Below the pieces are notes generated by a model. It did no database searches and was not told the origin of the DNA. It saw only the letters and a program-made list of their open reading frames with translations. DNA of 42,345 nucleotides, taken from a virus. Its lineage: Duplodnaviria; Heunggongvirae; Uroviricota; Caudoviricetes. Shown here in pieces: positions 3,243-42,345 of this stretch. A program made the translations under genes and the position numbers. Position 1 is the first letter of the stretch. Each line of letters begins with the position of its first letter. The stretch spans positions 1-42,345 of the IMG/VR virus record IMGVR_UViG_2609460346_000006; one strand, 5' to 3'.

Positions 3243-3919
3243 CGCCATTGCTCCCCAAATACAAAACCAATTTCAGCCAGTGCCTCGTCCATTTTTTCGA
3301 TGAACTCCGGCACCATCTCGTCAAAACTCGCCATGTACTTTTCATCCCGCTCAACCACGACATAATGCAGTCCTTCACGCTTCATACGCGGGTCATAGTT
3401 GGCAAAGTACCAGGCATCTTTTCGCGTCACCCACATGCTGTACTGCACCTGGGCCATGTAAGCTGACTTTATGGCCTCGAAACCACCGAGCCGGAACTTC
3501 ATGAAATCCCGGGAGGTAAACGGGCATTTCAGTTCAAGGCCGTTGCCGTCACTGCATAAACCATCTGGAGAGCAGGCGGTACGCATACTTTCGTCGCGAT
3601 AGATGATCGGTGATTCAGTAACATTCACGCCGGAAGTGAACTCAAACAGGGCTCTGGCGTCGTTCTCGTACTGTTTTCCCCAGGCCAGCGCTTTAGCGTT
3701 AACTTCCGGAGCCACACCGGTGCAAACCTCAGCAAGCAGGGTGTGGAAGTAGGACATTTTCATGTCAGGCCACTTTTTTCCGGAGCGGGGTTTTGCTATT
3801 ACGTTATGAACTTCTGAAGCTGTGATGACGCCGAGCCGTAATTTGTGCCACGCATCATCCCCCTGTTCGACAGCTCTCACGTCGATCCCGGTACGCTGCA
3901 GGATAATGTCCGGTGTCAT
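3239..3919 (-). CDS. exo: Lambda exonuclease (Red alpha)
   Basis: 226-aa translation is near-identical to lambda Exo as recalled ([50 protein letters not shown]…GEQWR). Confidence 0.97.
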
Positions 3920-4701
3920 GCTGCCACCTTCTGCTCTGCGGCTTTCTGTTTCAGGAATCCAAGAGCTTTTACTGCTTCGGCCTGTGTCAGTTCTGACGAT
4001 GCGCGAATGTCGCGGCGAAATATCTGGGAACAGAGCGGCAATAAGTCGTCATCCCATGTTTTATCCAGGGCGATCAGCAGAGTGTTAATCTCCTGCATGC
4101 TTTCATCGTTAACCGGAGTGATGTCGCGTTCCGGCTGACGTTCTGCAGTGTATGCGGTATTTTCGACAATGCGCTCGGCTTCATCCTTGTCATAGATACC
4201 AGCAAATCCGAAGGCCAGACGGGCACACTGAATCATAGCTTTATGCCGTAACATTCGTTTGGGATGCGACTGCCACGGTCCCGTGATTTCTCTGCCTTCG
4301 CGGGTTTTGAATGGTTCGCGGCGGCATTCATCCATCCACTCGGTAACGCAGATCGGATGATTACGGTCCTTGCGGTAAATCCGGCATGTACATGATTCAT
4401 TGTCCTGCTCAAAGTCCATGCCATCAAACTGCTGGTTTTCATTAATGATGCGGGACCAGCCATCAACGCCCACCACAGGAACGATGCCGTTCTGCTTATC
4501 AGGGAAGGCGTAAATTTCTTTCGTCCACGGATTAAGGCCGTACTGGTTGGCGACGATCAGCAATGCGATGAACTGCGCATCGCTGGCATCACCTTTAAAT
4601 GCCGTCTGACGAAGAGTGGTGATCAGTTCCTGTGGGTCGACAGAATCCATGCCGACACGTTCAGCCAGCTTCCCGGCTAGCGTTGCGAGTGCTGTACTCA
4701 T
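3916..4701 (-). CDS. bet: Lambda Bet (Red beta) single-strand annealing protein
   Basis: 261-aa translation matches lambda Bet as recalled ([66 protein letters not shown]…). Confidence 0.97.
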
Positions 4702-4706
4702 CCGTT

Positions 4707-5003
4707 TTATACCTCTGAATCAATATCAACATGGTGGTGAGCAATGGTTTCAACCATGTACCGGATGTGTTCTGCCATGCGCTCCTGAAACTCAACATCG
4801 TCATCAAACGCACGGGTAATGGCTTTTTTGCTGGCCCCGCAGCGTTGCAAATGATCGATGCAGAGTGATTCAAACAGGTGCTGTGGAAGACCTTTTTCCA
4901 TGTCGTCTGCCAGTTCTGCCTCTTTCTCTTCACGGGCGATCTGCTGGTAGTGACGCGCCCAGCTTTGAGCCTCAAGACGATCCTGAATGTAATAAGCGTT
5001 CAT
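4707..5003 (-). CDS. gam: Lambda Gam (RecBCD inhibitor), short form
   Basis: 98-aa translation matches the GamS portion of lambda Gam ([21 protein letters not shown]…VDIDSEV). Confidence 0.95.
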
Positions 5004-5078
5004 GGCTGAACTCCTGAAAATGGCTGTGAAAATATCGCCCGCGAAATGCCGGGCTGATTAGGAAAACAGGAAAGGGGA

Positions 5079-5369
5079 TTAGTGATTCAGGCCGTTGCCG
5101 CGCCCGTCGAGAAAAACTTCCACGAGCAAATCACGGGTATAAGTGCGCTCGATGCCGCGATGCAGATAAAGCCGTCCGCGTAAATTAGCTGATGCAGTCC
5201 AGGTACCATCTTTGTGTTTGACCAGCATTCCTGGCATGACCGCACCTCGATTAACGGTCTGCGTTCCGTAATGTTGATGAACCATAAAAACTCCTGCCCG
5301 TAAGCTGGGCTGCTGAACATATAGAGACTTCTGCGCGTATTCAGGCGGTGGATGGCCGCCGGTTGTCAT
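5079..5369 (-). CDS. Hypothetical protein, first gene of the leftward early (pL) transcript; function unknown
   Basis: 96 aa from ATG at 5367-5369 (GAGG 10 nt upstream); the ORF track extends to a TTG at 5489 adding an Arg-rich 40-aa N-terminus (…VKRTRERR…); lies where lambdoid phages carry N/kil/cIII but resembles none of them. Confidence 0.4.
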
Positions 5370-5562
5370 AACTAAGCCGCCTCGTTGAAACGACTGAGGT
5401 ATGAAGTGTTGAGTTGATTTCAGCTGGTCACACCGACGTTCACGCGTCCGCTTCACCCCTCGCACTTCCCGAAGCCTGCTGAAATTCAAGCTGCGGACCT
5501 AAGCGGTCATCGCAACGGTGAATCAGGTGGTTGCCGTATCGTTGTGTTGTTGCGATGAATTT

Positions 5563-30917: not shown

Positions 30918-32267
30918 ATGGCTACGTGGCAACAGGGTATTAATTCTGGTGGTTTTCTGGCTGGAATTGGTGCGCAAAATGAGAATGCGCCAAAGGCAAG
31001 CGACATTAACGCAACGCTTGGTCTGATCCGCGAAAACAATGAACTGGCTCGATCAGGTGCAAATAACGTTGGTCTGACCGCGTTACGTGGTCTGGCTGGA
31101 GTTGCTGATATTTATAAGCAGGAACAGCAACAGAAAGCGATTAATGCGTTCAATAAGGTTCATGCTGATGCATGGGCTTCTGGTGATCCATCGGGACTAT
31201 TTAAGTTTGCCCAGGAAAATCCAGCGTTTGTTGCACAGGCACAACAGGCGTTTTCCGGTCTTAATGAGCAGCAACGCAACGATATGGGCGATTTAGCCAT
31301 GAGGGCTAACGTCGCTCTTTCCCAGGGACCGGAAGCCTACAGTAAATTCATTACTGACAACAAGGACAGGTTAAATCGCGTTGGTGCTAATGCTGACTGG
31401 ATGATTCAGACAGGTATCCAGAATCCAGAGCAGCTATCACACATGCTGACTACTATGTCTCTCGGTGCACTTGGGCCAGAAAAGGCGTTTGCTGTTCAGG
31501 ATAAGATGGTTGGTCGCCAGCAGGAGCAGCAAAGAATTAACGAAACCATTCGCAATAATGACATGACGAATGCGAGGGCTATTAGGGGGCAGGATCTTTC
31601 CTATAAGGCTCAAATGGCAAGACTGAATCACGACAAGTATGTGTTTAAGCAGTCACAGGCGGCCCTTGAAAGAGCAGGACAACTTCAGGATATGGATGTT
31701 TTGTCTCTTAACTCACAGATAGCAGCGACGGGAATTGATCCGCTAACCGGTAAAGCTGCAACGTCAGCCAGAATGTCTCAGGCTAAGAGATGGCTTGATG
31801 GCAACAATAATTACAACAATGCGTTGATTACTGGTGAGCGAGGGATAGAGAAAATAGATTCTTTGCTTGGTAAGAAGGAGCTTGAAGGTATCGGTCGCTT
31901 CGAAGGAAGAAATATAGATGGCTTCACAAGTGCTGAAGGGCTTGCAAACCGTAATGCGATAGAAGAATTAAAGTCGGGTGCGTTTGTCCAGAACGTGCAG
32001 ACTATGCGAGGTATGGGTAGCCTCTCCAATGCTGAAGGACAAAAACTGGAAAACCTTATCGCGAAACTCGATATAACACAGCCTGAAGAGGTCGTCAGAA
32101 AACAGTTATCTGAAATCCGATCGCAATATTCTGTATTTCAAAAGGTTGCAGCAAGGGAGGCTGAATCAATGGGATATAGTTCATCAGGTTATGACACATA
32201 TGTTAGTGAGCGAAAATCAGGAAGCGACAGCAATAAGTCCGGTTTCTCGTCTTTATGGGGTGATTAA
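30918..32267 (+). CDS. Ejection protein (P22 gp20-like)
   Basis: 449 aa, synteny and composition consistent with gp20. Confidence 0.7.
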
Positions 32268-34435
32268 TGGCTAAAGCATGGAAAGATGTTATCGCTTCTC
32301 CACAGTATCAGGCGTTAACTGAAGAACAGAAAGCACAGGCTCAAGCGCAATATTTTGATGAGGTTGTTGCCCCTAAGGCTGGTGACAAATGGGCTGAAGC
32401 AAGAGATCAGTTTTATGCAGCATACCCTCCACCTCAGCAGCAGAAAGAAGAACCATCATTGATGCAACAAGCTGGTGATTGGCTCACAGGTGGTCAAAGT
32501 GCAGGGCAAATTGCAGAACAGGCTGGTCGTGGTCTGGTAAACATACCATTTGACGTATTGCAGGGTGGCGCAAGTCTGATTAATGCAATCAGCCAGGGGC
32601 TTGGTGGCCCAAAGGTTTTGGATGATGTCTATCGTCCAGTCGATCGACCGACAGACCCTTATGCGCAAGCCGGTGAAACAATTGGTGGGTATCTCCTGCC
32701 AATTGGCACAGCGGCAAAAGCTGCTGGAGCGCCAGCAAAGCTCGCTGGAGATATCGGTTCCGCAGGAAACATGATTGCAGGTTCTCTTGCTGATGCTGCA
32801 AATCAGGAGGGCGACTTTGCACAAAATGCTGCCATTAACGGTGGTATCAATATTGGTGCTCAGGGGATACTTTCTGGGGCTGGAAGGATCTTAACCTCTA
32901 AATCACCTCAAGTTCTTGGTGGCGGGGCAATAAATTCCGCTGCTGATGTTTCGAAAATGGCAAAGTCTGGTACAGGAAGAGAGATTATTGCCAGACAGTC
33001 AGCTAATGTGTCAGACGAAATAGCAAAAGCAGCAGATACTGCTGGAATAGATATCAACGCATTAACTCCTGGCATGAGATCAGGTAGTCGTGGTCTTGCT
33101 CAGGCGGAGGGGATTCTGGCGTCAAAGCCCGGAATTACACAGGATGCACACACCAAAGCATTCAGTGAAATAGAGTCGAAATTTAACTCAGCATTGGATG
33201 AGTTTGGGGCTGAAGCAGGAACTGCATCAGAAAAAAGTGCAGCCATAAAACAAAGGGTTTTGGCAAGTATTGATAAAATGAAAAATTCAGAAAAGGCTGC
33301 ATGGGATAGCGTCCGCTCCACGATGCCTGACGCAAAGGCCAGAATGTCAAACCTGAATGCTACAATTCAGGGTGATATTTTGGCTGGCATGCCGCTAACT
33401 CCTGAGATGAAACAATTCGCATCTGCTTATGCTAAAACTGGTAAAAAAGGAATCACGTTTGATGCCATGAAGGCATGGCGAAGTAAACTTGCTGACGCAG
33501 AGCAGAAGTATATAAGGTCTGGTGAGGCAAATACGGCAAGGCGCATGGCGGAGCTTCGTGATGCAGCAACGGAAGATATGCGCATAATGGCTCAAAATGG
33601 CGGTTTTCTTGATGACTGGCAAAAAGCTAATGATCTGTCAAAGGCAAGATTTACAGCACAAGAACAGGCTGAAGCAGCGTTTGGTAGAGACCTTGCAACT
33701 GATCAGTTGGTAACTAATGGATCTAAGGCGTTACAGGGTTCAGCAAAAAGTGGAACAGGTCAGTTCCATAAAATAATAAGCGCCCTACCTGAGTCGGAAC
33801 GCGCGCCAGCAATTGCATCAATATTACAAGATGCAATGTCGCAAGGGGTACGCGGAGGTAAGTCTGAAGAGGCTGGAATTAAGCATATCGCGACTATTCT
33901 TACCCCACAAAACGTGAAGGCAATTAGTCGATATTCTCCAGAACTTGGCAGGATTACAAGTTCATACGGAGAACTTGCACGAGCAGCAACAAAGCCACTT
34001 CGATATATTGAACAGACAGGGCGATCTATGCCAGCCATTAGCACTCTTGAGAATGGCCTTCATCCAGTTTTAGAGAGCGCATTGTCTGGCGCTTTTAGAA
34101 CTACTGGCACTATCGCAGGGTTCTCTGGAGGAGGCGTTATTGGAGCAATAGCGGGTGGCGCTGCAGGTGGGGCAATTGATGCAATGGCAAAAGGAGCGAT
34201 AGCGAAATTATCCGCAACTAGAAGCGGTCGTTACGCTATTGAAAAGGCTGTTCAAGAGGCAACAAAGGCAGTTAAGGTTGGGGCAAGTGATGGTGCATTA
34301 GCGGCGGCGGAACGCAGATTTATGGCAAATAAGGCCGCCGTAAAAGCAATACGCGAGGCACTAGGAAACGAAGAGTTCCAGCGTTTAGCAAGAGCTGGAA
34401 TTGTGGCATCGCTAAGCGGAATGGCACAGGAGTAA
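32267..34435 (+). CDS. Ejection protein (P22 gp16-like), extended
   Basis: 722 aa, last gene of the ejection cassette, Ala/Gly-rich; assignment by synteny. Confidence 0.65.
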
Positions 34436-34765
34436 TTAGTCATCCATGGATGGATTGAGCTTATCTCGTGTTGATGTGGCAATTTTCCCAACATTTTTCA
34501 ACCAAGATTTTAAGAAGGATATGTCGTCCTTAATATCATGAATATCCTCATTCTTTATACGATCAACCTTATCCTCTAAGCTCTCTATAGAACGCTCAAT
34601 GCTAGACAGAGAGATTTTTAAGTCCCCTTGCTCACGTTCCAGTGAGGATTTGAGAGCACAATATTCGTTTTCTAGAATTCCTATTTTTTTTGTTAGAGAG
34701 TGCATTCGATACTCATACACCAAACCAGAAACGACTAATGCAGCCAACAGAAACCATTCAAGCAC
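34436..34765 (-). CDS. Small membrane-anchored coiled-coil protein, unknown function
   Basis: 109 aa, GTG start preceded by AGGAGG (5-nt spacer); N-terminal TM (LEWFLLAALVVSGLVY) then coiled coil; opposite strand to the virion genes, AT-rich. Confidence 0.6.
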   Translation of the reverse strand: MLEWFLLAALVVSGLVYEYRMHSLTKKIGILENEYCALKSSLEREQGDLKISLSSIERSIESLEDKVDRIKNEDIHDIKDDISFLKSWLKNVGKIATSTRDKLNPSMDD

Positions 34766-35133
34766 ACCAACCTCCTTAGTTTTGCTCAGGATACCAGATG
34801 ATACTTTATTGGTGGAGTGGTGTGTGAAAACGTGTCAACGACAAACCATCCACAACTTGGACGAATGATTTAGCAAAAAGTGCTATTTTTGGTGTTTGGT
34901 GTCATAGAAAAGTGAATAGCTCACTTTTCAACATTGCATGAAACTTGCAGGAAATGTGACATTACCTTATAGGTAACTTCGGCGAAAATGCAGTAAATGT
35001 GAAACGTAATGGTTTAAACATGTCGCTAAAGTGGTTGTAAGTTAGCCTCCGAAGGATTGCTGATAGCTTTGTTATAGTATTAAATGACATTTGACATAGT
35101 TGGATACTTAGCTGTGGCTATCAAGATGGAGGT

Positions 35134-35583
35134 GTGTTCATGCTTACTTGTTTTGATGTCGCCGACTACTTCCTGTCGCGGTGTGACGAGGATAGCGGTG
35201 ACGCAATCTCTAATTTAAAATTACAAAAGCTTGTTTACTATGCTCAGGGTTTTTCATTGGCGTTGCTTGGCGAGCCTCTTTTTCAGAATAAGATGGAAGC
35301 TTGGATGCATGGCCCTGTTGTCCCTGAGCTTTATCACCGTTATAAACAATATGGTAATGGTGCTATCCCTTCTCCAGAGTCTTTTGATGCTGAAAAATTC
35401 AGCGAAGAACAGTTAGAGCTATTAGAAGAAGTCTGGGATGTTTTTGGGCAATTTTCTGCCTGGAAACTGAGGAACATGACACACGAAGAGTCACCATGGA
35501 GATCAAACTATATTGAGGGTGTTGGTGGTTCTGAAATTAGTTCTAAGGAGATGGCAGAGTACTTTGCAACTCGGATTAACTAA
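35134..35583 (+). CDS. Panacea-domain (DUF4065) protein, GepA/SocA-like; candidate antitoxin
   Basis: 149 aa; motif …LKLQKLVYYAQGFSLALLGEPLF…AWMHGPVVPELY… matches the DUF4065 core as recalled; GGAGG RBS. Confidence 0.75.
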   Translation: MFMLTCFDVADYFLSRCDEDSGDAISNLKLQKLVYYAQGFSLALLGEPLFQNKMEAWMHGPVVPELYHRYKQYGNGAIPSPESFDAEKFSEEQLELLEEVWDVFGQFSAWKLRNMTHEESPWRSNYIEGVGGSEISSKEMAEYFATRIN

Positions 35584-35587
35584 CGAG

Positions 35588-36007
35588 ATGGCAAGAAAAT
35601 CTAAAAGGATTATCCCCCCTGCTGAATCTACAGGTAAGTTAAAGTTAGGGCCGCAGTCAGGGGGGAATTCAGATCAAAAGAAACCGAAATTTTCATTCTG
35701 TTACATCCAAAGCTCTCACTGCATAACGAAATGCCAAAAAGATGAGAAAGCTGGCTTAGCTGATAAATTATACAGATTAAGTCAACTAACATGGGCAGAT
35801 ATTAAGCAGCAAGGTAGGCATAAGCTTGGATTTGAGAAGATTGCAAGGGGTGCAATTAAAGCAGGTATCCCCAGTCATATAACGGAAGACGTAGATCATT
35901 TCTTGGCTTTTAGATTTGATGATTTGAAAGCCATGGTTGGTTATCGTCTTGGATCGACATTTTTTGTTATATGGCTTGATAGAGAGTTCAACCTATACAA
36001 GCACTAA
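35588..36007 (+). CDS. Unknown 139-aa protein immediately downstream of the Panacea gene; candidate toxin/effector partner
   Basis: Internal ATG 35588, 4 nt after the Panacea stop; basic N-terminus, Cys-containing, C-terminal …FFVIWLDREFNLYKH; no family recognised. Confidence 0.5.
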   Translation: MARKSKRIIPPAESTGKLKLGPQSGGNSDQKKPKFSFCYIQSSHCITKCQKDEKAGLADKLYRLSQLTWADIKQQGRHKLGFEKIARGAIKAGIPSHITEDVDHFLAFRFDDLKAMVGYRLGSTFFVIWLDREFNLYKH

Positions 36008-36008
36008 T

Positions 36009-36034
36009 AAAACCCCCCGTCAGGTGGGTTTTTT
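36009..36034. terminator. Bidirectional terminator between the Panacea operon and mnt
   Basis: Hairpin flanked by an A-run upstream and a T-run downstream (AAAACCCCCCGTCAGGTGGGTTTTTTG). Confidence 0.6.
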
Positions 36035-36271
36035 GTACAAATCCTTCAGCGTATCAAACACCATCTTCCTAACAAGTTCGGACTGCTCATCAGCGATGCG
36101 TTCTGCATCGTCTCGATAGCCTGCAATTGGTGATGGTTTTGATAGCGCATCCTGAACGATTTGTAATAACTCTGAGTTCATTGACCTTCCGTTAGCCTCT
36201 GCTCTTAATTTCAATTTTTCTCTTACTTCCAAAGGCATACGGAAGTTAAAGTGCGGATCGTCTCTAGCCAT
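36020..36271 (-). CDS. mnt: Mnt repressor (ribbon-helix-helix)
   Basis: 83 aa, near-identical to P22 Mnt as recalled (MARDDPHFNFRMP…EVREKLK…RAEANGRSMNSELLQIVQDALSKPSP…). Confidence 0.9.
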   Translation of the reverse strand: MARDDPHFNFRMPLEVREKLKLRAEANGRSMNSELLQIVQDALSKPSPIAGYRDDAERIADEQSELVRKMVFDTLKDLYKKPT

Positions 36272-36294
36272 GCCATCACTCCAAGTTAGTATCT

Positions 36295-36552
36295 CTAACT
36301 TTCGTCTTTATTGTTGCTATACATGCATTTCAACTTCTCAACATCATGTTCAAGATCTATCAATCGTGATGCTATAGTTGCAAGGTCTAGTGCTTGAATG
36401 TGTTTATTTTTTTCGGTCCATGCTTCAAGTGCCGCGACCATCTCAGCATTTAATGAACGAGAATTAGCCTCAGCCAGTTCAATAAGACGTTCCTTTATCT
36501 CTACAGGAAGCCTCAGATTCACTTGAGGGTTTTTGTACTTACGATCAGACAT
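36295..36552 (-). CDS. Second Mnt/Arc-like RHH DNA-binding protein
   Basis: 85 aa from ATG 36552 (track ORF begins at GTG 36558); RHH signature …NLRLPVEIKERLIELAEANSRSLNAEMVAAL…. Confidence 0.7.
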   Translation of the reverse strand: MSDRKYKNPQVNLRLPVEIKERLIELAEANSRSLNAEMVAALEAWTEKNKHIQALDLATIASRLIDLEHDVEKLKCMYSNNKDES

Positions 36553-36558
36553 CGGCAC

Positions 36559-36657
36559 ATCCTGAATAATTTTTTACCACAGGATATGTAGGTATCTATT
36601 GACTATCAATGCGTACCTAAATACTATGTATGCGTACCACATACAACGGAGGATGCA
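36559..36657. promoter_or_regulatory. immI control region: divergent promoters with palindromic operator-like sites
   Basis: Inverted repeats AGGTA…TACCT and ATTGA…TCAAT and a duplicated TGCGTACC motif between divergent RHH genes. Confidence 0.45.
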
Positions 36658-36798
36658 ATGAAGGTAAAAACACTGCGTATGCCAGAGAAGTTAGAAAAAA
36701 TCCTTGAAGAGAAAGCAAAGGAAGAGTGTCGCTCATTTAGTGCAGAAGTAATTAAACGGGTGATGGACAGCCTGAAGAGAGAGGGGATAACGGTATGA
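36658..36798 (+). CDS. Arc-like RHH repressor (46 aa)
   Basis: Manual translation MKVKTLRMPEKLEKILEEKAKEECRSFSAEVIKRVMDSLKREGITV; GGAGG RBS; parallels P22 Arc …NGRSVNSEIYQRVMESFKKEG…. Confidence 0.6.
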   Translation: MKVKTLRMPEKLEKILEEKAKEECRSFSAEVIKRVMDSLKREGITV

Positions 36799-36998
36799 GT
36801 AAAGAATGTTGTTTCTGCGGCATTAGCGAATCAGACGCTGATCAAACATACATTTACTCTAAAGAAACAGGTCGGATGCTGTGTAGTGACTGCGTGTTGG
36901 ACATCATAAGATACAAGCATCTTGGATGTTCTGCCAGCATTAGCAATATAGGTGAAGTATATGAAGGGAAAGATATAACTGATAGAGCAGAAAGTTGA
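36795..36998 (+). CDS. Small zinc-ribbon protein between arc-like and ant
   Basis: 67 aa, ATG overlapping the arc-like stop; CxxC…CxxC (…CCFCG…CSDCV…). Confidence 0.5.
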   Translation: MSKECCFCGISESDADQTYIYSKETGRMLCSDCVLDIIRYKHLGCSASISNIGEVYEGKDITDRAES

Positions 36999-40629: not shown

Positions 40630-41106
40630 TTAACTAAACATCGCAGTAATCGAGGCACTCGCCAGAGAGTGAAAATGAACGTTAAACCCGACCATCGCGC
40701 CGCTGGCACCTTCATCGACATCAATACGTTCTACATCCAGCGCGTGAACGGTAAAAATGTAGCGATGGGTTTCGCCTTTCGGCGGCGCTGCGCCATCGTA
40801 CCCGGTTTTACCAAAGTCGGTACGCGTCTGCAAAACGCCGTCTGGCATAGCTACCAGACCAGAGCCAAACCCTTGCGGTAATACGCGGGTATCAGCGGGT
40901 AAATTAACAACTACCCAGTGCCACCAGCCGGAGCCGGTTGGCGCATCCGGGTCATAGCAGGTGACAACAAAACTTTTCGTTCCCACAGGAACATCATCCC
41001 ACGCCAGATGCGGTGAAATATTATCGCCATCGTAACCCATGCCGTTAAAGACATGACGATGCGGCAGCTTATCGCCATCGCGCAGATCGTTACTGATGAG
41101 TTTCAT
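40630..41106 (-). CDS. ybhB: Host YbhB (PEBP/RKIP-family protein)
   Basis: 158 aa matching E. coli YbhB as recalled; adjacent to attB-lambda as in E. coli. Confidence 0.85.
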   Translation of the reverse strand: MKLISNDLRDGDKLPHRHVFNGMGYDGDNISPHLAWDDVPVGTKSFVVTCYDPDAPTGSGWWHWVVVNLPADTRVLPQGFGSGLVAMPDGVLQTRTDFGKTGYDGAAPPKGETHRYIFTVHALDVERIDVDEGASGAMVGFNVHFHSLASASITAMFS

Positions 41107-42345
41107 TAGAATGCCTCCGGGAAACCTCGGCCTTCAGACCGGGGAGGAAAGGAGGCGGTTTTCCGACTAACTGTACTTTGCATAATCACATTTTCCTCTT
41201 TAGTATGTGAACACATGAAACGCGCATATAAATACCGGTTTTACCCGACAACTGAGCAGGCTGAGCTTTTAGCTCAGACGTTTGGCTGTGTGCGCTTCGT
41301 CTACAATTCCATCCTTCGTTGGCGTACCGATGCGTACTACGAGCGAAAAGAAAAGATCGGTTATCTACAGGCCAACGCTCGCCTTACGGCGCTCAAAAAA
41401 GAGCCTGAATACATATGGCTGAATGATGTTTCCTGCGTTCCCCTCCAGCAGTCGTTGCGCCACCAACAAGCCGCCTTTGCTAACTTCTTTGCCGGACGAG
41501 CTGCATATCCGGCTTTCAAAAGCAAACGGCACAAACAGGTGGCTGAGTTCACTGCCAGCGCGTTTAAACACCGTGACGGCGAGTTGTATATAGCAAAGAG
41601 CAAGTCGCCGCTGGATGTTCGCTGGAGTCGAGAATTACCATCTGCGCCGTCAACCGTTACCATTTCCAGAGATAGCGCTGGCAGGTACTTTGTTTCCTGC
41701 CTGTGTGAGTTTGAACCTGTATCAATGCCTGTTACCGCTAAAACGGTCGGCATTGATGTGGGCTTAAAAGATTTATTCGTCACCGATACCGGATTCAAAA
41801 CCGACAATCCCCGCCACACCGCTAAATATGCGAAGCGATTAACGCTGCTACAGCGACGTTTAAGCAGGAAGCAAAAAGGCTCAAGAAACCGTATTAAAGC
41901 CCGCTTAAAGGTCGCCCGACTCCACGCGAAAATCGCCGATTGCCGGATGGACAATCTGCACAAGTTGTCCCGCAAACTGATTAACGAAAACCAAGTTGTT
42001 TGCGTCGAATCCCTCAAGGTGAAAAACATGATCCGCAACCCGAAGCTGTCTAAAGCAATAGCTGACGCAGGCTGGAGCGAACTTGTTCGCCAGCTCCAGT
42101 ACAAAGGCAAATGGGCCGGGCGGTCAGTGGTCGCCATTGACCAGTATTTACCGTCCTCAAAATGCTGTAGTTGCTGCGGTTTCACCATGCAAAAAATGCC
42201 TCTTAATGTTCGTAAATGGCACTGCCCTGAATGCGGCGCAGACCATGATCGCGACATTAACGCGGCACGTAATATTAAAGCTGCCGGGCTGGCAGTGTTA
42301 GCCCACGGAGAGCCTGTAAACCCTGAATCGCAGCACGCGGCTTAG
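41107..42345 (+). mobile_element. Partial IS200/IS605-family element carrying only tnpB (right end beyond window)
   Basis: tnpB with ~108 bp of structured upstream sequence and no Y1 tnpA seen on the left flank. Confidence 0.5.
41215..42345 (+). CDS. tnpB: IS200/IS605-family TnpB (OrfB)
   Basis: 376 aa; RuvC-like motifs and zinc finger (…CCSCCGF…HCPECGADHDRDINAARNI…); stop codon is the last triplet of the window. Confidence 0.9.
   Translation: MKRAYKYRFYPTTEQAELLAQTFGCVRFVYNSILRWRTDAYYERKEKIGYLQANARLTALKKEPEYIWLNDVSCVPLQQSLRHQQAAFANFFAGRAAYPAFKSKRHKQVAEFTASAFKHRDGELYIAKSKSPLDVRWSRELPSAPSTVTISRDSAGRYFVSCLCEFEPVSMPVTAKTVGIDVGLKDLFVTDTGFKTDNPRHTAKYAKRLTLLQRRLSRKQKGSRNRIKARLKVARLHAKIADCRMDNLHKLSRKLINENQVVCVESLKVKNMIRNPKLSKAIADAGWSELVRQLQYKGKWAGRSVVAIDQYLPSSKCCSCCGFTMQKMPLNVRKWHCPECGADHDRDINAARNIKAAGLAVLAHGEPVNPESQHAA

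Follow-up and report, generated by a model that had tools for sequence, protein, structure and literature searches.

The subject of this analysis is a two-gene cassette on the plus strand of a P22-like Escherichia coli prophage, IMG/VR record IMGVR_UViG_2609460346_000006 (42,345 nt, this whole stretch being referred to below as the window). The first gene, panA (35140-35583), codes for an acidic, stand-alone Panacea/DUF4065 protein of 147 amino acids, and the second (35588-36007), called the partner gene here, for a basic protein of 139 amino acids that belongs to cluster T1 of the "PanT" proteins of Kurata et al. 2022 (PMC8832971). Both open reading frames (ORFs) were found in the window as first described. 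The gene order around them is ejection genes including a gene-16 homologue, an hkcB-like gene (minus strand), the cassette (plus strand), mnt (minus strand), a second Arc-family gene, arc, ant and the tailspike gene. The pair is already known, having been catalogued and tested by Kurata et al. 2022 (PMC8832971). On balance we favour the view that it is a PanAT module of cluster T1, coupling PanA to a RelE-like RNase, that protects the lysogen.

ATG 35140 (147 amino acids) is a better start for panA than GTG 35134, as it lies 7 nt downstream of a Shine-Dalgarno (SD) sequence, GGAGG (35128-35132, plus strand), gives the family N-terminus MLTCFDVA (common to 30 panA homologues in an alignment) and agrees with the 147-residue call of the Prokaryotic Genome Annotation Pipeline (PGAP). 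The PGAP/RefSeq products in identical E. coli prophages are WP_032219532.1 for panA (147 amino acids) and WP_032219545.1 for the partner (139 amino acids). The panA stop codon, TAA, occupies 35581-35583 and is followed after a 4-nt gap by the ATG of the partner gene at 35588, just as the original prediction had it; the computed isoelectric points (4.56 for PanA, 9.74 for the partner) bear out the basic character that it gave to the second protein. The partner's own SD is weak (AACGAG), so that translational coupling to panA is likelier than an independent ribosome-binding site.

The cassette ends in an intrinsic terminator (36009-36034), a G+C hairpin between an A-run and a T-run (hairpin and T-run at 36016-36028 and the following bases), which had also been anticipated and which the record of phage Emek annotates at the same site. 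The terminator borders directly on the stop codon of mnt, which lies on the opposite strand, and is apparently bidirectional, serving both the cassette and mnt. A search of 34400-36700 against Rfam returned only a sub-threshold match to STnc420 over the terminator, which was rejected. The pair is AT-rich, as stated at the outset: the GC content of the cassette is 0.40, against 0.48 in the structural genes and 0.46 in the window as a whole. The neighbouring immI genes are GC-poor as well (0.425).

The location between the ejection genes (gene 16) and mnt was likewise found as predicted, while the attribution to the sieA/immI slot needs some adjustment. The order in P22 is 16, sieA (minus strand), orf59a (minus strand), mnt (minus strand). 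The variable region is the same, but within it the cassette corresponds to orf59a/hkcC, and it is the hkcB-like gene that takes the place of sieA proper. With P22 SieA and other exclusion morons the cassette has this variable region in common, so far as P22-like genomes are concerned, and it could plausibly protect the lysogen; it differs from them in its products, for which a soluble, cytoplasmic nature and unrelated folds are predicted.

The Panacea protein and its RNase-like partner

PanA matches Pfam PF13274 (SocA_Panacea) with 88.5 bits (E = 7.6e-25; gathering threshold 25.7 bits) over profile positions 1-112 of 113, and carries the GPV signature at residues 58-60, so that the original Panacea assignment stands. 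G58, P59 and V60 are invariant in an alignment of 31 homologues, and the GPV motif is described as critical for neutralisation in the Discussion of Kurata et al. (PMC8832971). More than 3,000 PanA homologues were found, about 147 amino acids long, with 58-85% identity among the best 120 listed. The AlphaFold2 (AF2) model of PanA is compact (predicted local distance difference test, pLDDT, 94.7) and ends with a conserved C-terminal helix (135-143). Neither a Pfam scan nor the AF2 model revealed an extra DNA-binding domain in PanA, and a fold search of the Protein Data Bank (PDB) yielded nothing stronger than a weak similarity with the DarG chain of DarTG (E = 0.35).

The Panacea domain is common to PanA and SocA, the founding Panacea antitoxin, which belongs to the type VI toxin-antitoxin system SocAB of Caulobacter. 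SocA is a ClpXP adaptor rather than a sequestering antitoxin, and SocB forms cluster T10 (PMC8832971). Membership of the cassette in SocAB was rejected, PanA scoring 70.5 bits against the 190-bit cutoff of the NCBIfam SocA_antitoxin equivalog and its partner falling in T1 rather than in T10.

The partner had been described as a protein with no recognisable family, which has to be revised. It matches phrog_8366 over its full length, and its residues 31-135 match positions 178-279 of the PADLOC model for NsnC of the Menshen system (E = 4e-6). All of its aligned homologues match the same C-terminal, RNase-effector region of the model (56/56, positions ~178-279 of 284, best E = 1.7e-10). In PMC12065111 this region of NsnC is described as an RNase of YafQ-like BECR fold that has an H-R-H triad. 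The partner family is large (1,560 clusters at 50% identity with E<=1e-3), and its best 150 members are all free-standing proteins of 94-154 amino acids.

Structure prediction, which had been proposed for the partner, gave a RelE/YafQ-like BECR fold. The AF2 model, built from the 56 homologues (pLDDT 87.6), has a core with the order beta, alpha, alpha and four beta strands, and shows the RelE-type alpha/beta fold of the RelE/ParE superfamily. This predicted fold takes up residues 31-139 and is preceded by a disordered, lysine/arginine-rich stretch (residues 1-30, pLDDT 50-67). E83 and R109 are invariant in the partner alignment, H78, K84, R120, Y137 and H139 are nearly so, and the proteins end in LYxH; these conserved residues fall on the predicted strands beta2, beta3 and beta4 and on the C-terminal tail. 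Judging from the family profile and the model, the core of the partner is very probably an endoribonuclease domain of the RelE/YoeB/YafQ type (BECR fold), homologous to the effector domain of NsnC. A profile of the partner family gave only a chance match among PDB sequences (E = 3), hhalign produced no alignment between the family and E. coli YoeB, and a match to NCBIfam "MAG6450" (E = 0.05) was discarded as too weak to use.

The pair resembles the RelBE, YefM-YoeB, DinJ-YafQ and HigBA systems in having conserved and putatively equivalent Glu, Arg, His and Tyr residues along the sheet and in the tail, and in associating a basic protein with an acidic partner encoded upstream. It departs from them in that the partner has no sequence-level match to the RelE family in Pfam or the PDB, has an extra basic and disordered N-terminus of ~30 residues and a longer beta2-beta3 loop than RelE-type toxins, and showed no toxicity when induced in E. 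coli in published work, and in that the would-be antitoxin is a Panacea protein rather than a ribbon-helix-helix or Phd/YefM protein. With Menshen NsnC (PB-BECR1; PMC12065111), the likeness is in the homologous C-terminal effector, to which the H-R-H triad is ascribed; H78, R109/R120 and H139 are conserved in the partner. Membership in Menshen itself was rejected, since the partner is only 139 amino acids long with a disordered N-terminus in place of the N-terminal inactive-PIN domain, and its neighbours are panA and mnt rather than NsnA (ParB-DUF262) or NsnB (ABC ATPase). If the partner is regulated at all, this would be by the Panacea protein, and the Menshen paper (PMC12065111) makes no mention of Panacea.

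Association and spread of the two genes

A search for co-occurrence shows that the two genes form a conserved module, here carried at a variable site of the prophage, and in this the original prediction is supported. In 54 of 59 viral loci a panA ORF lies from -4 to +30 nt upstream of the partner gene and in the same orientation, and the pair was also found in all eight loci that were looked up individually (3/3 distant partner-centred loci and 5/5 PanA-centred loci, including some in which the partner had been missed by gene callers). Kurata et al. define PanAT-like pairs by a distance of at most 100 nt between the genes, an architecture present in at least two species, no inclusion in a longer conserved operon, and reciprocal association. 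The pair has a gap of 4 nt, a conserved architecture, flanking genes that vary from locus to locus and reciprocal association, and is thus PanAT-like in silico.

Three of the five exceptions are truncated remnants (L048 and L050) or a fragment (L067). In the fourth (L063, a metagenomic viral contig, 3462-5386), panA is inverted and divergent from the partner gene, and is followed by a second panA with a very distant partner-like gene (E = 9.5e-5), i.e. a tandem double module. In the last (L025, an isolate-derived viral contig, 3688-4423), only the last ~25 codons of panA are left (…EGVGYQVISHNELKDYFLTRIN), fused in frame to an upstream ORF among tail-region genes.

The pair is not limited to phages, nor to the enterobacteria, as it was found in Acidobacteria, Cyanobacteria, Desulfoluna, Magnetococcales, Pseudomonas and Aeromonas. 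In an Acidobacterium it lies between polyprenyl synthetase and nucleotidyl-transferase genes, in a cyanobacterium it adjoins the gene for a type I restriction R subunit (hsdR), and in Desulfoluna an nSTAND3 NTPase gene is found ~1.1 kb away. In a P2-like prophage of Aeromonas it is inserted between genes with Phage_tail_S and Phage_base_V domains, which we take to be the site where P2 carries Z/fun. Unrelated prophages carry the pair at many sites, some among tail genes and others in the terminase or immunity region, and the flanking genes always differ.

Within P22-like phages the cassette is a mobile moron, inserted in the variable slot that separates the ejection genes from mnt. The segment 34763-36034 is 99.9% identical to Salmonella phage vB_SemP_Emek and 99.2% identical to Escherichia phage phiv205-1, P22-like genomes that are otherwise different, and a diverged allele occupies the same slot in phages EC.P3 and E212 (70% amino acid identity for PanA and 57% for the partner). 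Most P22-like phages have no cassette. Among 5,426 complete E. coli genomes, 82 carry it (48 with the allele of the window and 34 with the EC.P3/E212 type). Between alleles, the proportion of synonymous differences is saturated (0.73-0.90) and that of nonsynonymous differences is low (0.19-0.34), which argues that both genes are under purifying selection.

Function of the pair

Kurata et al. 2022 (PMC8832971) searched 20,209 genomes with a DUF4065 model and predicted 1,268 PanAT loci with 88 toxin clusters. Their Dataset S1 contains the Emek pair (YP_006560565.1 for PanA, labelled "noNTD", and YP_006560566.1 for the partner) in cluster T1, with the order A|T and the flag "Phage". T1 comprises 217 rows of this dataset and is, level with the MqsR-like T2, the largest cluster (PMC8832971). 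As the Emek pair is essentially identical to that of the window, the novelty implied by the original prediction does not hold: the locus itself is no discovery, and the RNase-like nature of the partner had already been suggested by HHpred in the Panacea paper.

The Emek pair has the gene order, stand-alone PanA and partner seen in the window and differs from it only in the published ORF of the partner, 161 amino acids from an upstream TTG against the family-consistent 139. Public records (Emek YP_006560566.1, E. coli WP_077635758.1 and P0001/P0002) give this gene three different upstream starts, TTG or GTG, the products having 161, 160 or 147 amino acids. The 139-residue form is backed by an invariant methionine at ATG 35588, by family lengths of ~122-145 amino acids and by the current PGAP call. 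The overlaps of -62 and -20 nt given in Dataset S1 map exactly to TTG 35522 and TTG 35564 of the window, from which it follows that the proteins tested were mis-annotated forms of 161 (Emek) and 147 (E. coli MOD1) amino acids, with 22 and 8 additional N-terminal residues. As the native N-terminus is predicted to be disordered, these extensions are likelier to be harmless than not.

How such a pair might act can be outlined from what is published on other Panacea proteins. Nine other PanAT pairs behave as toxin-antitoxin systems (PMC8832971), and stand-alone Panacea neutralises directly, a sensor role having been proposed for the domain (Ernits 2023; the supplements of that paper do not list this pair). 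By analogy with this work, and given the complementary charges of the two proteins, PanA may bind its RNase partner directly. In the lysogen the RNase would either be kept inactive or be latent by nature. Superinfection, or another such cue, could then lead it to cleave RNA, and translation would stop, protecting the lysogen population from other phages.

The contexts that we count in favour of such a lysogen-protective module are those typical of defence genes: beside the slot equivalent to P22 sieA, next to hsdR, near the nSTAND3 gene and in the tail-gene slot of Aeromonas. A defence or exclusion function of the pair nevertheless remains a tentative proposal, a little short of probable. It is possible, if rather doubtful, that the T1 partner is a latent RNase effector corresponding to a free-standing NsnC effector domain, held by PanA and then licensed by it on a phage cue.

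A number of observations weigh against the module being protective and RNase-based. In SI Table S1 of Kurata et al. (PMC8832971), the Emek partner is predicted to be of the class "mRNase" (HHpred) but is recorded as "not toxic" when expressed from pBAD33 with a strong SD in E. coli BW25113, and the near-identical T1 member of E. coli MOD1 (WP_077635758.1) is also recorded as "not toxic"; antitoxin rescue for the Emek pair is given as not applicable, no toxicity having been seen. Toxicity was seen with the T1 member of Clostridium cadaveris, which the cognate PanA "failed to neutralise" (PMC8832971). With two near-identical members non-toxic and a third toxic but not rescued, T1 has no validated toxin-antitoxin pair. 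A search of the literature on Panacea or T1 and phage defence returned nothing beyond two papers of the Atkinson/Hauryliuk laboratories and no report of a defence phenotype, and no PADLOC model matches PanA. None of the 56 partner homologues matches RelE, YoeB, YafQ, HigB or ParE in Pfam, RelE-type families rank first in a Foldseek search with the partner model at a weak E of about 0.3, and the equivalence of the conserved residues with E46, R65, H83 and Y84 of YoeB, which we infer from strand order, stays putative. A scan of the leader of the cassette gave no sigma-70-like promoter on the plus strand of 34770-35139 (partial hexamers at most, by eye). Finally, the 143-residue partner gene of L025 is intact beside its panA remnant, so that either the partner is harmless alone or the C-terminal helix of PanA is enough to hold it.

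A classical type II toxin-antitoxin or addiction module, in which a labile PanA would sequester a constitutively active mRNA interferase and post-segregational killing would stabilise the prophage, could account for the antitoxin-toxin order with 4-nt spacing, for the acidic/basic pairing and for the predicted RelE-superfamily fold of the partner, and it is the way in which the nine other PanAT pairs act. Three clonal E. coli isolates that have kept panA, with a 1-nt insertion in the cassette and no annotated coding sequence for the partner, also show the order of decay expected for such a system. We nonetheless regard an addiction module as unlikely, as two constructs of the partner were non-toxic in E. 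coli, L025 keeps an intact partner with panA down to its last codons, and PanA is devoid of a DNA-binding domain for autoregulation. A toxin role of the partner, which the original prediction proposed to test and against which it named a non-toxic downstream protein as evidence, is partly undermined by the same published results, both constructs having N-terminal extensions. A latent effector, on the other hand, fits better than a constitutively toxic one with this published non-toxicity and with the tolerance of L025 for a partner without PanA.

The extensions themselves could be at fault, the native 139-residue protein being toxic and the 161- and 147-residue forms impaired in folding, stability or activity. 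The exact mapping of the Dataset S1 overlaps to the two TTG codons, the methionine conserved throughout the family at ATG 35588 with members of ~122-145 amino acids, and the present PGAP call of 139 amino acids would all agree with such an artefact. The artefact is nevertheless quite improbable: 8 residues added ahead of some 30 predicted to be disordered are unlikely to abolish activity, and the native ATG is still internal to both constructs. Least likely of all, by far, is a role intrinsic to the phage, as a virion or ejection accessory or an immI regulator rather than a host-directed toxin or defence protein. The cassette does close the late operon, with the ejection genes on one side and immI on the other, and late transcription, which gp23 antiterminates in P22, would read through it. 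The same pair, however, occurs in non-phage chromosomes (Acidobacteria, and the cyanobacterium in which it is beside hsdR) and at many different positions within unrelated phage types, and it is missing from most P22-like phages; a virion or ejection role was rejected because of these non-phage chromosomal contexts.

Were PanA shown to license a latent effector, a family that ranks among the two largest associated with Panacea would prove to be a two-component system of anti-phage defence or exclusion, not a classical toxin-antitoxin system, and the lack of toxicity of the partner alone in the published tests would be explained. The point that still deserves attention is that T1, which makes up 217 of the roughly 1,268 PanAT loci predicted, is without a validated member. 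To this can be added the mis-annotated starts of both enterobacterial constructs, the homology with the Menshen effector, and the presence of the pair in defence-type slots of several prophage families. A positive defence result in the native host would help to show what the Panacea domain does.

Leader and neighbouring genes

A non-coding leader (34766-35139) travels with the cassette, its leftmost ~45 nt being the 5' untranslated region (5'UTR) and SD of the divergent minus-strand gene. Folded as RNA it is unremarkable (z = -2.4); it contains a perfect 9-bp hairpin, GAAAAGTGA-ATAGC-TCACTTTTC (~34905-34927). The segment 34790-35060 is 97-100% identical between the two alleles, whose genes differ at 30-43% of residues. 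The leader was found in 5 phage records, each with one of the two cassettes. Of the 85 E. coli genomes that also contain it, two or more retain just the first 205 nt; one of these, P15-25, was checked and has no panA. A recent recombination event at a linker common to both alleles could explain the conservation of the leader, as could a functional element, for instance a divergent promoter region.

The gene divergent from the leader is the hkcB-like gene (34436-34765, minus strand), which lies outside the mobile cassette and encodes a 109-residue protein with an N-terminal hydrophobic segment and a coiled coil (phrog_5962). It shares the sieA 5'UTR and SD, GGTATCCTGnnCAAAACTAAGGAGGTTGGTGTG. 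Different minus-strand genes begin at this boundary in phages Emek and EC.P3, and the 109-residue protein is a candidate for an alternative superinfection-exclusion gene product. The structural neighbour further to the left is the gene-16 homologue (32267-34435, plus strand), coding for a DNA transfer/ejection protein.

To the right of the cassette, mnt (36020-36271, minus strand; Arc and Repressor_Mnt domains) is followed by a gene for an 87-residue Arc-like protein (36295-36558, minus strand; Pfam Arc E = 3.4e-10), the two forming a tandem of Arc-family ribbon-helix-helix genes where P22 has mnt alone. Between arc and ant, a 67-residue cysteine-rich ORF (CCFCG…CSDC; 36795-36998, plus strand) overlaps the arc stop by 4 nt. 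Its site corresponds to the region of the sar antisense RNA in P22, and Emek and EC.P3 have annotated ORFs at the equivalent position. The GC content goes up past ~40650 (region 40630-42345). In the identical prophage of E. coli STEC346, ybhB and bioA come after the tailspike region, which points to host chromosome next to the bio locus at the right end of the window.

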